IMG/VR virus record: IMGVR_UViG_3300027785_000140
Span: 1-24,084 of that record
Direction: 5' to 3' (one strand)
From: a virus
Lineage: Duplodnaviria; Caudoviricetes
DNA: 24,084 bases
Of this stretch, positions 747 through 23,519 are shown one piece after another. Under the pieces are notes generated by a model that was given only the letters and a program-made list of their open reading frames with translations, did not search any database and was not told the origin of the DNA. A program made the translations under genes and the position numbers. Numbering within the stretch: position 1 is the stretch's first letter; every line of letters begins with the position of its first letter.

Positions 747-1256
747 ATGAGCGTTCTAAAAGACTATCACTGCAAAAATCACGGCATATTTGAGGCTTGG
801 GAGCCTGTATGCCCCATGAAGAACTGCAAAGGCGAACTGTCCGTTGTTTTTTTGAAGCCTGTGGGCACAAGGTCTGCCAAGACCAAGCACACAGACAACA
901 CAGTCAAGCAATTGGCTATTGAGTACGGTATGACGGATGTAAAAACCACCAGAGAGGGCGAACACCAGACTGGTTACCTCAAACGCAACAACAAGCTGTC
1001 AGACAAAGAGTTTGCACACGCTACAGACGCTATGAACGCCCAAAAGAAAGAAGCTAGGCCTGGAGATGCGGCAATTTGGGGCGGCGGTGGTAGTATTAGC
1101 ATGAAATCCGTTATGGGTGGACAATTCAAGCCAGTGAAAGACGAGTCTGTTGGCATAATGCCCAGAGATGCCTCTCCTACAGGTTCATTGTCCGGCCCTA
1201 CGGCGGGTGTTGGCACTATGCGTGACCCAGATAACTTACAGGTGAAGACAACATGA
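747..1256 (+). CDS. hypothetical protein with N-terminal zinc-ribbon-like motif
   Basis: DYHCKNHG...CPMKNC (CxxH...CxxxxC). SD-like GAGGG upstream, ATGA overlap with the portal gene. Confidence 0.65.
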   Translation: MSVLKDYHCKNHGIFEAWEPVCPMKNCKGELSVVFLKPVGTRSAKTKHTDNTVKQLAIEYGMTDVKTTREGEHQTGYLKRNNKLSDKEFAHATDAMNAQKKEARPGDAAIWGGGGSISMKSVMGGQFKPVKDESVGIMPRDASPTGSLSGPTAGVGTMRDPDNLQVKTT

Positions 1257-2857
1257 GGATACCTACCAACCCCGTAGATAGAGAATTGTTCTATCTTGAC
1301 CTGATTTCCAAGTGTCAAGTCTCTCAAGAGGAGAGAAAAGTAGACTATAGCTCCCTGCGGAGCTTCTATTTGTTTGGTAGTGGCCCAGATGAAGCCCCGG
1401 CTCTGTACAACAAAATCTTTCCGCACATTGACCAACTCACCAGTTTTCTGTATTCAGCAGAAACAACCCGCTTTTCCATTGATGTTGGTGCTGCTGTTGA
1501 CCCCAGAGAACAGGTAAAAGTCCCGGCTTTGACCCGTGCACTCAACGATGAGTGGATAAATAGCAACGCTGACCAAGTGTTTTCCATCGCTACAACGTGG
1601 TCATTGTGCTACAACACCACGTTTATCAAGATAATTATTAACAACGGCATCCATCCGTACATGGTGGAGCCAGCTTGCATGGGTGTATTGCGGGAAGATA
1701 CGCCCTATTCAGACAGGCAAGAGGCAATTACCCAGACCTATTACATCACCAAGTCGGAGTTGTATGACCGTCTGTACAGCCATCCCAAAAGGGAAGAGAT
1801 TGTCAAGCGCATCACGGCTACCCAGCATGAGCGCACACACATTGCAAACGGTGTTGAGCGCATCATGTTGTCTCAGTCAAACCCAACAATGTACGGTAAT
1901 GTTAATTTAGACCTTGCCGGACAGAACCGTTATAAAGCCACAGTTGCTGAAGACACCATAGAGATGACTGAGCTATGGGTGTGGAACGATGAAATCAAAG
2001 ACTACCAAGTTGTAACCAAAGCAGACCCAGACGTAATTATCTATGACCGCCCTGGTGAGCAGGTGTTCCTCAAAGGCGAGTTGCCATTTGTGCAGGTCTG
2101 CCCCAACCCTCTGTATGACTACTACTGGGGTGGCTCGGAGGTTCAACGTTTGATTTTCCTCCAGCAGCTACGCAACAAGCGTATGCAGGAAATTTTGGAC
2201 TTGCTATCTAAACAGGTCAACCCGCCTACTGCGCTAATTGGCTTCACTGGAATCTTGGACGAGAAGAACTTTGCGCTCAATCGTGCTGGTGGATTGCTGG
2301 CAACTGACATGCCTAATGCCAAGGTCGAGAAGTTAGCGCCAACTATTCCACCTGACTTGTTTAGGGAAATTGGTGAGATTGACTTGATGTTTGAAGAGGC
2401 ATCTGGCATTGTGTCTGTGTTGCAAGGCCGGGGTGAAGCAGGTGTGCGTTCATCTGGTCACGCATCTCAGCTTGCTCGTCTAGGCTCTAGCCGTGCCAAG
2501 AAACGTGCCCTCATTATTGAGGACAGCTTGGAGAAGTTGGCAACCCTATATCTGAAGTGTATGCAAGTCTATGATGCAACCCACTTCACAGATATGGAAA
2601 ACAAGAAGTTCATTGCTGAACAGTTTACCCAAGACTTTGTTGTAAAGGTGGACGCCCATTCCAACTCACCCATCTTCATGGAAGACATGAGAGAGCTTGC
2701 TTTTAACCTCTACAAAGCCCAGGTGATTGACAAAGAATCTCTGCTTGACTTGTTGGAACCACCAATGAAACAATTACTCAAAGACAGATTGAAGAAGATG
2801 GAGGCTACGCAACAAGCACAAGCTGCTGCCGCCCCTCTTCCCAATGCAGAGGGTTAA
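1253..2857 (+). CDS. portal (head-tail connector) protein, podovirus type
   Basis: 534 aa, lying before scaffold and capsid. Portal-like segments LPFVQ..PNP....YWG.SEV, LQQLRNKRMQEILDLL...NPP and EEASGI..VLQG. Confidence 0.85.
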   Translation: MRIPTNPVDRELFYLDLISKCQVSQEERKVDYSSLRSFYLFGSGPDEAPALYNKIFPHIDQLTSFLYSAETTRFSIDVGAAVDPREQVKVPALTRALNDEWINSNADQVFSIATTWSLCYNTTFIKIIINNGIHPYMVEPACMGVLREDTPYSDRQEAITQTYYITKSELYDRLYSHPKREEIVKRITATQHERTHIANGVERIMLSQSNPTMYGNVNLDLAGQNRYKATVAEDTIEMTELWVWNDEIKDYQVVTKADPDVIIYDRPGEQVFLKGELPFVQVCPNPLYDYYWGGSEVQRLIFLQQLRNKRMQEILDLLSKQVNPPTALIGFTGILDEKNFALNRAGGLLATDMPNAKVEKLAPTIPPDLFREIGEIDLMFEEASGIVSVLQGRGEAGVRSSGHASQLARLGSSRAKKRALIIEDSLEKLATLYLKCMQVYDATHFTDMENKKFIAEQFTQDFVVKVDAHSNSPIFMEDMRELAFNLYKAQVIDKESLLDLLEPPMKQLLKDRLKKMEATQQAQAAAAPLPNAEG

Positions 2858-2880
2858 CCAAACTGAAAGAAGGTAGGACA

Positions 2881-3039
2881 ATGGCAACACAAGCAATCGT
2901 GCCTCCTAGGGCTGACCAGCCTCGGACAAGCACTGAGCAACTGAAACGTGGGGAAATGCCCTCCAGCTTGACATATCGTCAAACTGGGGTTAAAAACAAC
3001 ACCGGGCGTAGTCAACGTGACTATTCTCGGCAAGGTTAA
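2881..3039 (+). CDS. 52-aa basic hypothetical protein (not in ORF track)
   Basis: Translated by hand: MATQAIVPPRADQPRTSTEQLKRGEMPSSLTYRQTGVKNNTGRSQRDYSRQG*. Purine-rich AAGGTAGGA upstream, and it fills the gap after the portal gene. Confidence 0.7.
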   Translation: MATQAIVPPRADQPRTSTEQLKRGEMPSSLTYRQTGVKNNTGRSQRDYSRQG

Positions 3040-3051
3040 CCAGGAGGCATC

Positions 3052-3090
3052 ATGTACGGTACAAAACGTGGTCGTAAGACCCGGCGTTAA
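3052..3090 (+). CDS. 12-aa basic micropeptide MYGTKRGRKTRR
   Basis: AGGAGG SD at 3042-3047, ATG at 3052, TAA at 3088-3090. Confidence 0.6.
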   Translation: MYGTKRGRKTRR

Positions 3091-3092
3091 AT

Positions 3093-3143
3093 TTTCCGCA
3101 AGGAAATAGGGTATGGCTGCTTCCCCTATGAAGCAAGTGGCCG
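3093..3143 (+). ncRNA. putative cis RNA structure 1: GCAA tetraloop hairpin plus H-type pseudoknot
   Basis: TTTCC-GCAA-GGAAA (3093-3106). S1 ATAGGG 3106-3111 / CCCTAT 3124-3129. S2 TGGCTGCTT 3114-3122 / AAGTGGCCG 3135-3143 with 3 G-U pairs. Confidence 0.45.
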
Positions 3144-3163
3144 CCTGAACCAAGGAGCGCATC

Positions 3164-3202
3164 ATGCGTAAAGGTCGTAAGGGTCGTAAAGCCTGTAAGT
3201 AA
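3164..3202 (+). CDS. 12-aa basic micropeptide MRKGRKGRKACK
   Basis: AAGGAG SD at 3152-3157, ATG at 3164, TAA at 3200-3202. RKG repeats resemble the previous peptide. Confidence 0.65.
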   Translation: MRKGRKGRKACK

Positions 3203-3247
3203 TCCGCAAGGATTTGTCTTTGGGAAGCAGACACAAAATGCTTCCCA
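3201..3247 (+). ncRNA. putative cis RNA structure 2: GCAA tetraloop hairpin plus compact H-type pseudoknot
   Basis: AATCC-GCAA-GGATT (3201-3214). S1 TGTCT 3215-3219 / AGACA 3229-3233. S2 TGGGAAGC 3221-3228 / GCTTCCCA 3240-3247. All pairs are Watson-Crick. Confidence 0.55.
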
Positions 3248-3251
3248 CCTA

Positions 3252-3281
3252 TTGACAAGCAGTTTGTAAGTGGTTACAAAC
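3252..3281 (+). promoter_or_regulatory. sigma70-like promoter candidate overlapped by a perfect inverted repeat
   Basis: TTGACA (3252-3257), 17 nt, TACAAA (3275-3280, imperfect -10). Inverted repeat GTTTGTAA-GTGG-TTACAAAC at 3262-3281. Confidence 0.45.
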
Positions 3282-3299
3282 GGCGCACAAGGAGTTTTT

Positions 3300-3764
3300 A
3301 TGAGCGTACCTTCAGATAAATTGATGGAATTGATGCGAGGCAGTCGGTCTGCCGCCGCACCTGCCCCTGTCCCTGAACCTGAAAACAACCCCTCAGAAGC
3401 ATTCTCTAGTGATGACACTTCTCCAATGGCATCGCCCATGTCTACGCCTGAACCAAAGATGGGTTCAAAAGAGGCGGCAATGATTAACATTGGCATGGCA
3501 ATGGATTTGCTAGAGCAGTCTCTCCCCGCCCTTGGCTCTGATTCTGATGAAGGCCAGAAAGCTCTGGCAGCAATCCGTACCCTCACAGGTTTGATGGGGC
3601 CACGCAAAAACAACACCAACGAACTCCAGCAATCTGAAATTTTGCAGATGCTTCAAACATTACCCCAGGCAGGTGGCGCAACGCCTGAAGGTAGAGCAAT
3701 GCAAGCAGCGCCGATTCCCGGTATGCCGCCAGCAGGTGGCGCACCAATCCCACCCCCAATGTAA
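3300..3764 (+). CDS. Pro/Met-rich hypothetical head-module protein (154 aa)
   Basis: AAGGAG at 3289-3294 favours ATG 3300 over the GTG at 3270. Located between portal and scaffold. Confidence 0.75.
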   Translation: MSVPSDKLMELMRGSRSAAAPAPVPEPENNPSEAFSSDDTSPMASPMSTPEPKMGSKEAAMINIGMAMDLLEQSLPALGSDSDEGQKALAAIRTLTGLMGPRKNNTNELQQSEILQMLQTLPQAGGATPEGRAMQAAPIPGMPPAGGAPIPPPM

Positions 3765-3773
3765 GGAAACAAC

Positions 3774-3956
3774 ATGGAATTGTTCAAACCCCGTGGCGCA
3801 GCCGCACCCCGCCGTCCTACTGACAACAATCAGCAAAACGGTACTATCACCAACACCCCCCGTTTCTCACAACTTGGTGGCTTGAGCAACCCAGCTAAAG
3901 TCGGTAAGACTGGCATGGCTGTGCAGAAACCTGCTGACGGTAAAAAAGTCATCTAA
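3774..3956 (+). CDS. 60-aa basic hypothetical protein
   Basis: TAAGGA SD overlapping the upstream stop. Fills the gap on the coding strand. Confidence 0.75.
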   Translation: MELFKPRGAAAPRRPTDNNQQNGTITNTPRFSQLGGLSNPAKVGKTGMAVQKPADGKKVI

Positions 3957-3976
3957 TCGTATAAAGAGGGTAAACC

Positions 3977-4507
3977 ATGTCACTTGAAAACATTTCATCA
4001 GATGCTCGGGATGAGTTAGCGGCCTTGGCCCAACAACTCGCTGAGAATCCCGCCACTCGCAAAGACTTTCTGCGTATGACCAAAAAGGTCAAACCAGACT
4101 TGCCCATTCCCGAGCTTGACATTGAAGACTACACGCACCGGGCGGTTAACCGTTCTGAAGAGCGTGTGCAACAGTTGGAAGCCAAGTTGCGTGAGCGGGA
4201 TGCGATGGAAGAGTTAACCAAGCGCCGTCAGTCCTTGATGAAAAAAGGATTGATTGCTTCTGAATCTGAAGTGGGCGATGTGGAGAAAATTATGCTGGAG
4301 CAAGGTATCACCAACCATGAAACAGCAGCACAGTATCATACGTGGATGAAGCAAGCGGCAGTTCCGACTTCTTCTGGTTACAACCCCCAAGTCATTCAAC
4401 AGTTTGACTTGAAGGGATACTGGAAGAATCCGACAACTGCTGCCCGTTCTGAAGCAATGAAAGCACTCAATGACCTGCGGAAACCGCAACGTCCCATTGG
4501 GTTGTAA
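3977..4507 (+). CDS. probable capsid scaffolding protein
   Basis: 176 aa, charged and helical/coiled-coil, directly upstream of the major capsid gene. The call is positional. Confidence 0.6.
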   Translation: MSLENISSDARDELAALAQQLAENPATRKDFLRMTKKVKPDLPIPELDIEDYTHRAVNRSEERVQQLEAKLRERDAMEELTKRRQSLMKKGLIASESEVGDVEKIMLEQGITNHETAAQYHTWMKQAAVPTSSGYNPQVIQQFDLKGYWKNPTTAARSEAMKALNDLRKPQRPIGL

Positions 4508-4535: not shown

Positions 4536-5537
4536 ATGGCTATTGGCGGCGGCATCCTACCAGCAACAGGGTCAAATCAGTTCAATGAATTGACCTACGT
4601 TACTCGTAGAGCCTTTATCCCCAAGCTGGTTGTCCAGCTTTACAACTCGACACCCCTGATGGCGGCTCTGATTGCCAACAGTCAGCAAGCCTCCGGCGGT
4701 GTGTCTTCCGTAACCGTGCCCGTTCAAGGCGCTCAATTTGTGAATGCTCAGTGGTCTGACTACTCTGGCTCCTTTGCCCAGCCGTCAGTTCAGCAGGGTG
4801 CTTACAACGCTGAGTTTGACCTGAAGCTGATGATTTCTCCCGTGCCGTTCCTCGGTATGGAAGGCGCTGTTCAGCAAGACGCAGCTATTATTCCGTTGAT
4901 TGAAGCTCGTATGAACGATGCAACCAACGTGATGATGGATGCAATGGCAACAGCCTTGTACAACAACACTACCAACACTCAGCAGTTTATCGGTCTTCCT
5001 GCTGCCGTTAGCGCCACTGGCACTTATGGCAACATCAGCCGCTCTGCTTATACGTGGTGGCAGTCCAAAGCCTACGCTGCTGGTTCAGTGAACCCAACTC
5101 GTCAAAACATTCTGCAATACATTTCCGGCACTGTGAAAAACGGCGCTGAAATGCCTAGCTTTGGTGTTTGCGGTTTTGGCACCTGGACTTTGCTGGCTCA
5201 AGACTATGTTGGTCAAGAACAGTATGTCATTACCCCAGGCTCCGGCTTTGATGGCGACAACAACGGCCCCCAGGCAGCATTCCGTGCCCTGATGGTTGCT
5301 GGCGTTCCCATTTATCCTGACCCCTACTGCCCAGAAGGTACGGTTTACTTCCTGAACACTAATTACCTGTCGCTCTACATCCATGAGCAAGGTTCGTTTG
5401 TGTTTACTGGATTTGAATCCACCCTCCCGAACTGGCAGATTGGTTACGTTGGTGCGGTTTTGATGATTGCCGAATTGGTAAGCGTCAAACCCAAGTCGAT
5501 GACCGTGGTGTCTGGTTATAACTACCTCTCACTGTAA
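4536..5537 (+). CDS. major capsid protein (HK97 fold expected)
   Basis: 333 aa with a strong TAAGGAGG SD. Capsid-like segments FIPKLVVQLYNSTPL, FIGL.AAV...TYGNISRS..TWW and GVPIYPDPYCPEGTVYFLN. Confidence 0.88.
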   Translation: MAIGGGILPATGSNQFNELTYVTRRAFIPKLVVQLYNSTPLMAALIANSQQASGGVSSVTVPVQGAQFVNAQWSDYSGSFAQPSVQQGAYNAEFDLKLMISPVPFLGMEGAVQQDAAIIPLIEARMNDATNVMMDAMATALYNNTTNTQQFIGLPAAVSATGTYGNISRSAYTWWQSKAYAAGSVNPTRQNILQYISGTVKNGAEMPSFGVCGFGTWTLLAQDYVGQEQYVITPGSGFDGDNNGPQAAFRALMVAGVPIYPDPYCPEGTVYFLNTNYLSLYIHEQGSFVFTGFESTLPNWQIGYVGAVLMIAELVSVKPKSMTVVSGYNYLSL

Positions 5538-22871: not shown

Positions 22872-23296
22872 ACCTGACCCCACACTTCACCCTGGAAGAG
22901 CTGACGCACACAGACCACCGCACCCTGGATAATATTCCCAATGAAGCTGAACTTGCAAACCTTAAAAGACTGGCTGAATTCCTTGAAGCAGTCAAAACCG
23001 TACTTGGCGGTAAGCCAATCATTGTCAACAGTGCTTTCCGCTCTAAAGCGGTTAACGATGCGGTAGGAAGTAAAGACACAAGCCAGCACCGCACGGGTTG
23101 TGCTGCCGACATACGTGTACCCGGCATGACCCCAGATGAAGTGGTGAAGGCCATCGTTGCAGCCAACTTAGGCCATGACCAAGTGATACGTGAGTTTGAC
23201 AGGTGGACGCATGTGAGCATCCCTAACAACACTGCTGACAAACCCAGACTGCAAGCTCTCATCATTGACAAGCAAGGGACACGGTTCTATGCCTAA
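22868..23296 (+). CDS. endolysin, peptidase M15A (Zn peptidase) family
   Basis: HFTLEE, SAFRS..VN.AVG...SQH..G.AAD and E..RW.HVS, which give the H/D/H Zn ligands of the M15 family. Confidence 0.88.
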   Translation: MNLTPHFTLEELTHTDHRTLDNIPNEAELANLKRLAEFLEAVKTVLGGKPIIVNSAFRSKAVNDAVGSKDTSQHRTGCAADIRVPGMTPDEVVKAIVAANLGHDQVIREFDRWTHVSIPNNTADKPRLQALIIDKQGTRFYA

Positions 23297-23519
23297 AAAG
23301 AAGTTTCCCAATTTAAGTGTTGGCAGAGGCGAGAAGCTGTCTGTCAAAAAGGGTGGCGGTCTGACTGCTAAAGGCAGAGCCAAGGCCAACAGAGCTACGG
23401 GTAGCAACCTGAAGGCTCCCACCAAATCAGGCCCACGCCAAAAGTCCTTCTGCGCTAGAAGCAAGAGCTGGACTGGAGAACGTGGTAAAGCTGCTCGTAA
23501 ACGCTGGGGATGCAGATAA
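23289..23519 (+). CDS. 76-aa very basic protein (DUF6321-like by recollection)
   Basis: GGLTAKGRA...TGSNLKAP...KSFCAR...RW.C. ATG 23289, with AAGGGA upstream, is preferred over the start at 23265. Confidence 0.7.
   Translation: MPKKKFPNLSVGRGEKLSVKKGGGLTAKGRAKANRATGSNLKAPTKSGPRQKSFCARSKSWTGERGKAARKRWGCR

Follow-up and report, generated by a model that had tools for sequence, protein, structure and literature searches.

Organization of the portal-to-head interval

The window analyzed here, IMGVR_UViG_3300027785_000140, is a single contig of 24,084 bases that holds the structural region of a tailed phage. Between the portal gene and the head genes lie two 12-codon micro-ORFs, two hairpins and two H-type pseudoknots (PK1 and PK2, with stems S1 and S2), arranged as follows.

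1253..2857, + strand: portal gene, the upstream anchor (phrog_1216 portal, E = 1e-8; Pfam SU10_portal above cut-off)
2881..3039, + strand: 52-aa ORF with a basic C-terminus, found in related loci
2968..2996, + strand: predicted internal sigma70-type promoter TTGACA-N17-TAAAAA, inside the 52-aa ORF and upstream of the peptides
3042-3047 and 3052-3090, + strand: Shine–Dalgarno sequence (SD) AGGAGG and micro-ORF 1, MYGTKRGRKTRR, ending in TAA
3093-3106, + strand: hairpin TTTCC-GCAA-GGAAA after stop 1, loop sequence not conserved
3106..3143, + strand: PK1, H-type; S1 3106-3111/3124-3129, S2 3114-3122/3135-3143, with tandem G-U pairs
3152-3157 and 3164-3202, + strand: SD AAGGAG and micro-ORF 2, MRKGRKGRKACK, ending in TAA
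3201-3214, + strand: hairpin AATCC-GCAA-GGATT overlapping stop 2, variable
3215..3247, + strand: PK2, H-type; S1 3215-3218/3230-3233, S2 3221-3229/3239-3247, no U-tract
3252..3280, + strand: predicted promoter TTGACA-N17-TACAAA of the downstream head genes, with a palindrome over the -10 box
3300..3764, + strand: 154-aa gene, acidic and Pro-rich, the downstream anchor
4536..5537, + strand: major head protein gene (phrog_9953, E = 4e-33)

The original prediction had described two consecutive units, each made of an SD, CATCATG, a 12-codon Lys/Arg/Gly peptide, TAA, a hairpin and a pseudoknot; all of these parts are present, at the refined coordinates given above. CATCATG precedes both starts in the window and is not conserved in relatives. 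Searches of PHROG, Pfam and the ESM Atlas returned no family for the 52-aa ORF, and neither the ESM Atlas nor Pfam gave a function for the 154-aa gene. The phage family is very common in freshwater, with roughly 2,200-2,500 stretches in IMG/VR. Its two complete GenBank relatives are spring-water phages of 34.2 and 35.6 kb, and the RNA runs that hold parts of the stretch are labeled freshwater, lake or river. Three MAG contigs carry inconsistent host labels.

The micro-ORFs are conserved genes

Of the window's 472 ORFs that span 9-25 codons, counting both strands, only micro-ORFs 1 and 2 combine a strong SD with at least 40% Lys plus Arg. Both were found in 67/67 complete intervals of a first sample, and at least one Lys/Arg micro-ORF is present in all 199 distinct portal-to-next-gene intervals obtained from 274 loci. 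When distant relatives were added, 324/325 distinct regions downstream of the portal gene had such an ORF, including those of relatives whose portals are only 34% identical (the SD requirement being waived for two start patterns in this count); the sole miss, L611, has a portal identity of 31%. The original prediction had hinged on the ORFs recurring in relatives, and they do. Each locus carries one to three copies. The 225 distinct coding sequences encode 126 distinct peptides, mostly 12-15 aa long, with 61% Lys plus Arg (32% Arg and 28% Lys, the two being interchangeable); acidic residues are almost absent, under a filter that itself allowed at most one. Arginine is encoded by CGT or CGC in 779 of 899 cases, and one peptide is encoded by as many as 12 synonymous DNA versions. 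Across 28 ORF2 sequences, third codon positions are variable in 8 of 8 cases, first positions in 2 and second positions in 1. Both 12-codon ORFs are conserved genes under coding selection.

A DNA pattern for the end of ORF2 matched about 550 IMG/VR stretches, and 119 of the 120 matches fetched adjoin portal or head genes, the remaining one being truncated. Of the 33 matches to a looser DNA pattern, 28 came from the same family and 3 were chance hits out of frame; the other 2 are similar ORFs (around 900-950) in L466 and L467, which are other phages. In L466, which belongs to another phage family, a Lys/Arg/Gly micro-ORF lies between genes that by eye are terminase-like and portal-like, with no pseudoknot; in L467, the micro-ORF is accompanied by upstream hairpins and a second basic ORF. 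That gene calling overlooks both ORFs, as had been suspected, is seen in the GenBank annotation of the two relatives, which misses the peptides and places opposite-strand hypothetical genes there. Long antisense ORFs over the region were rejected because spacer lengths shift their frame freely.

Two distinct pseudoknots are supported by covariation

Pseudoknots were sought with our own H-type finder, which requires perfect stems, scores them by ViennaRNA stacking and compares them with dinucleotide shuffles. PK1 scored -26.0 kcal/mol, equalled by 1/500 shuffles, and PK2 scored -25.8 kcal/mol, equalled by 0/500. On the + strand of the window, seven pseudoknot-like sites reach -22 kcal/mol or lower, and these two are the strongest; the G-U pairs in their stems fit that strand. 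A further site, inside the portal gene at window positions 1674-1705 (-25.6), is probably due to chance.

PK1 was aligned with MAFFT in 56 stretches, hand-picked for diversity from 119 distinct ones, some rows being misaligned; 87.9% of the cells were paired, and in 54 cells both sides had changed. Shuffles gave a mean of 13 such cells and none of 500 reached 54, and all slid registers were lower, the covariation counts being inflated by relatedness of the rows. In a motif-anchored count of 51 rows, S2 pairs 2, 3, 7 and 8 are 98-100% canonical, and pairs 5-6 form a recurrent non-canonical 2x2 spot (73% and 71% canonical). The position of PK1 is tightly kept relative to the gene behind it: its end lies 17-24 nt ahead of the next ATG in 153/153 rows (20-23 nt in 141, and 20 nt ahead of the second ATG in the window) and 6-13 nt from the SD, and the preceding stop lies 14-32 nt upstream in 142/144. 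Its primary sequence is kept more than that of PK2 and includes conserved nucleotides. An alternative register through 3130-3135 was dropped, as it leaves no loop 3.

PK2 was called at or below -18 in 126/131 distinct stop-to-promoter regions, one call being a mis-call, compared with 190/1310 shuffles. The five misses comprise L140, which has no structure, and a variant that by eye appears to be a PK2 with an internal mismatch. The S1 and S2 strand pairs of the element come in 30 and 51 different versions; it starts 0-52 nt after the last stop, and its end lies 0-6 nt ahead of a TTGAC box in 121/126. The U-tract of an intrinsic terminator (at least five T in the next 8 nt) follows PK2 in just 3/126. 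Many PK2s end in purine-CC or purine-CT; a tRNA-like CCA end was considered and rejected, as it is not conserved.

Both pseudoknots are real and supported by covariation, and compensatory changes and shuffles bear out the original prediction of two structures that differ in sequence and share a topology. A PK1 covariance model did not match PK2, and the two are not detectably related. Long-range pairing between PK1 and PK2, possible in the window, was set aside as unspecific in relatives, where a duplex at or below -14 formed in 37/111 and was driven by G/C runs. The Infernal search that had been proposed gave no match to any Rfam 15 family, riboswitches, ribozymes, type III antitoxins and tmRNA included, at gathering threshold in the window, and at relaxed E only chance-level matches in the interval and in 20 related loci; matches to DUF3800-XI, RAGATH-33, Lacto-phage-1 and IRES_Bip were discarded as far below the Rfam threshold. 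ARAGORN found no tRNA or tmRNA in the window. The same source collection has yielded 8,495 uncharacterized candidate structured RNAs, likewise intergenic and covarying, according to PMC10690425. The PK motifs had no match in four of six supplements listed there, and PK1 or PK2 may be among those candidates, listed without interpretation.

The two hairpins do share a CC-GCAA-GG core in this window, as had been pointed out, and the core is not conserved beyond it. A strict GNRA loop occurs in 33/97 and 52/106 distinct hairpins, counts that run low where the closing pair opens in folding; it is the commonest class among many other loops. The second hairpin is absent in L053-type loci and multiplied in others.

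The peptide is the constant core of the module

Among the 199 distinct intervals, 45 have a peptide without PK1, of which 41 leave no room for any 3' structure and 4 have only the 3' pseudoknot. In the 41, a single peptide is followed directly by the promoter box, and they fall into at least two separate lineages of the portal tree (unrooted, FastTree, 52 of 108 portals). Five loci (L490, L517, L539, L541 and L612) have two or three peptides and PK2 with no PK1. Ten intervals were scored as one peptide plus PK1: in eight, ORF1 is genuinely absent and PK1 comes after the 52-aa gene, and in L217 and L435 the first ORF is damaged or has a weak SD. In L443 and L459, PK1 directly follows the portal stop, ahead of the first peptide. 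Extra peptide copies in L091, L134 and L188 have neither hairpin nor pseudoknot. The PK1 covariance model found no match in 14 loci scored as PK1-less; a relaxed 5'-pseudoknot test over-called, flagging 25 structure-less intervals, and its 5' counts were not used.

The peptide is thus the constant core, with PK1 and PK2 as 5' and 3' elements that are separately gained or lost, and the 41/199 intervals that keep a peptide without flanking structure make the RNA structure accessory. Selection on the module, claimed in the original prediction, is upheld by the coding signal and covariation; its picture of a duplicated peptide-hairpin-pseudoknot unit is not. PK1 belongs to the leader of the downstream peptide and remains where no peptide precedes it. 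PK2 closes the peptide cluster and is likely a 3'-end element, which retains the 3' protection of a stable mini-mRNA from the earlier proposal. In three relatives with portals 52-54% identical (L476-L478), an intrinsic terminator stands where PK2 would be, behind an 11-of-12 sigma70 promoter, a different pseudoknot and two peptides. These loci (L476 4117-4379, L477 3048-3330 and L478 4123-4400) form a self-contained promoter-pseudoknot-two-peptide-terminator unit with a third pseudoknot family. Where lineages lack the promoter (L435, L490, L517, L539, L541 and L564), the end of PK2 is some 15-27 nt ahead of the next ATG, a placement like that of PK1, and PK2 may there be a 5' element of the next gene instead.

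Promoters and RNA-library coverage

The internal-promoter pattern is present in 77/154 PK1-bearing intervals and in 0/45 others. A consensus promoter scan listed neither 2968..2996 nor 3252..3280. The palindrome TTTGTAA-N4-TTACAAA (window 3263-3280) overlaps the predicted -10 box and is a possible repressor or activator site; its TTTGTA-N6-TACAAA form is present in 54/154 PK1 intervals, and L084 has a different palindrome. Fourteen RNA runs hold part of the stretch, nine of them at a share of at least 0.2. The four that were compared consist entirely of contigs, which may include DNA and give no strand, ends or level. These contigs cover the head module broadly, with a depth of 12 for an exact-match contig over the cassette and 9.6-11.3 for its neighbors. 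PK2 is crossed by RNA-library contigs X1 (2988-3306, with a 2-base gap at 3231) and X3 (3229-3428).

A protamine-like mini-message as the favored reading

The module is real, widespread and unannotated, and its genes and structures are well supported; what it does is read from sequence and stays short of probable. We tentatively propose a pseudoknot-bounded, high-output mini-message for protamine-like peptides that would neutralize phage DNA in head assembly. A bulk product that binds nucleic acid by charge fits the composition-only conservation, the free Lys/Arg exchange and the variable copy number, as well as the strong SDs and the fixed place in the head module. The peptides would likely be protamine-like counter-ions on phage DNA, either during head filling or in the virion, and would bind it by charge and not by sequence. 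Late transcription would reach them by read-through from the portal gene and, in roughly half of the lineages with PK1, also from a predicted internal promoter. The simplest role for PK1 is that of a 5' leader element; placed just outside the footprint of the initiating ribosome, it may shield the 5' end or aid initiation. PK2 would form a 3' exonuclease barrier, a role that an intrinsic terminator may fill in distant relatives. This is the simplest reading of PK2 because a terminator can replace it and because it persists where a promoter lies between it and the following gene. Intercistronic 3' stem-loops such as REP elements and those of the puf operon stabilize upstream message segments. 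Like them, PK2 is a terminator-interchangeable structure right behind a cistron, here predicted to be highly expressed, within a longer operon; it is a pseudoknot, however, and not a hairpin, and its stabilizing effect is predicted.

By simple arithmetic, half-neutralizing a 35-kb genome with +6 or +7 peptides takes about 5,000 copies per particle, a demand that would explain the dedicated promoter, the tandem genes and the protective RNA ends. Eukaryotic dsDNA viruses have their genomes condensed by small basic proteins, and lambda DNA is shifted by short basic peptides (PMC6163548). The baculovirus P6.9 and ascovirus P64 basic repeats described there share with the phage peptides their very short, Lys/Arg-rich, acid-free and low-complexity character and their encoding with virion-assembly genes (here 119/120 pattern matches and 324/325 regions). 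The phage peptides differ in being mostly only 10-15 aa, in having one to three tandem genes and in belonging to tailed dsDNA phages with a portal motor; no sequence homology is claimed, and their DNA binding and packaging role are predicted. Spermine lowers phage capsid pressure, according to PMC2771126. The same paper also supplies an argument against the proposal, in that tailed phages fill a preformed head by motor, and ejection uses a DNA pressure that polycations reduce. Also against it, PK2 lacks a U-tract and is crossed by RNA-library contigs, which leaves a discrete 3' end there hypothetical.

In the usual description, tailed phages package bare DNA whose charge is offset by small ions and by polyamines from the host. 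Full-text searches found no literature on protamine-like peptides in tailed phage virions. The phiX174 J protein and adenovirus mu are further protamine-like viral comparators. The arrangement of micropeptides with pseudoknots was likewise found in no description in the full-text literature searched, which covers mostly non-subscription papers, in keeping with the original view that it is not a described system. A bolder version, which we regard as distinctly improbable, is that a widespread family of freshwater tailed phages makes its own 12-residue protamine in thousands of copies from a mini-message capped by pseudoknots. The peptides would enter the head together with the genome and adjust capsid pressure in low-salt water, and PK1 would be a sensor that shuts off synthesis once the DNA is saturated. 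If the favored reading holds, a phage 12-mer polycation kept across portals 34-100% alike would add a missing component of head assembly. Rfam lacks both of the compact pseudoknot families found at this locus, whose natural variants with or without each pseudoknot, or with a terminator for PK2, offer a test of pseudoknots as 5' and 3' message boundaries in bacteria.

Alternative explanations

The peptides could instead have their role inside the infected cell and not in the virion, where they might, for example, coat the DNA, RNA or ribosomes of the host or chaperone phage DNA ahead of packaging; the pseudoknots would then only raise the dose. Free 12-mers could bind any nucleic acid, composition cannot separate these targets, and no capsid-targeting motif is visible in the 126 peptide variants. 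The near-invariant position in the head module speaks against such a role, as does the similar ORF in L466 of another phage family, whose terminase-like and portal-like neighbors were judged by eye, and we consider it rather unlikely.

Another reading, compatible with a DNA-binding role of the peptides, makes PK1 an autoregulatory operator to which excess peptide would bind, stopping its own translation. The precedent is the gene 32 operator of T4, T2 and RB69, likewise an H-type pseudoknot of phages, located 5' of the ribosome-binding site for a nucleic-acid-binding product (here a predicted one), which gp32 binds when in excess over ssDNA (PMC3014915). The fixed distance of PK1 before the SD (6-13 nt), its more conserved primary sequence relative to PK2 and the recurrent non-canonical 2x2 spot in S2 all suit an operator. 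The gene 32 pseudoknot, however, is 67 nt upstream, and an unstructured A+U-rich tract leads from it to the ribosome-binding site, whereas PK1 lies about 21 nt upstream, with 6-13 nt to the SD and no such tract. The product here is moreover a 12-mer, a second pseudoknot lies 3' and repression is hypothetical. An anti-SD switch is not conserved, the SD pairing with the PK1 interior in only 5/138; S2 of the L362 PK1 is all Watson-Crick; L476-L478 combine near-identical peptides with a different pseudoknot; and the peptides are of low complexity. We consider an operator unlikely.

If the RNA itself were the product, as a ligand-binding, catalytic or tRNA-like molecule, the ORFs would be incidental. 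The purine-CC/CT ends of many PK2s and the conserved nucleotides of PK1 could be read this way; with no Rfam or ARAGORN match, a PK2 sequence that is free to vary and peptides more widespread than either pseudoknot, we regard it as very unlikely.

The original prediction had also raised a regulatory pair of an Arg-rich peptide and GNRA hairpins, as in antitermination by lambda N and boxB. Arg-rich peptides near GNRA-type hairpins, with GNRA the commonest loop class, are shared with that system. Yet GNRA accounts for no more than about half of the loops (33/97 and 52/106), the second hairpin is missing in L053-type loci and 41/199 intervals keep a peptide with no hairpin. No boxA-like 9-mer lies in 2900-3300 (consensus with up to one mismatch; seven matches in the window against a chance mean of 4.1). 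N has separate antitermination regions (reference cited in PMC3177189), for which 12 aa leave no room; in contrast to that system, the loop here is unconserved, boxA and activation regions are lacking and the peptide persists without the RNA. The pairing is disfavored and exceedingly unlikely.

A stop followed by a hairpin and a pseudoknot resembles a readthrough signal, and Lys/Arg leader peptides might sense charged tRNA; recoding by readthrough or frameshifting, or attenuation, is nonetheless judged highly improbable, since frames are distributed at random from ORF1 to ORF2 (54/46/44) and from the last ORF to the gene after it (64/55/54), spacing is free (0-52 nt from stop to PK2, 14-32 nt from stop to PK1 in 142/144) and no terminator was found in window 2700-4100.

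Other small basic ORFs

Further small basic ORFs accompany the peptides. Two that are conserved in the portal-to-capsid interval, of 52 aa (2881-3039) and 60 aa (3774-3956), possibly encode additional internal head proteins. One sub-clade (L081 and L082) has an extra 32-aa charged ORF (MANKEKK...) immediately 3' of the portal gene, ahead of the 52-aa gene. Within 500 nt past the portal gene of L555 (34% portal identity), there is a 28-aa histone-like ORF (MARKHSKS...), together with a longer basic ORF that, judged by eye, lies right behind the portal stop. At window positions 23265-23519, an 84-aa very basic ORF (MPKKKFPNLSVGRGEKLSVKKGGG...) near the lysis gene is a candidate DNA-binding virion protein.
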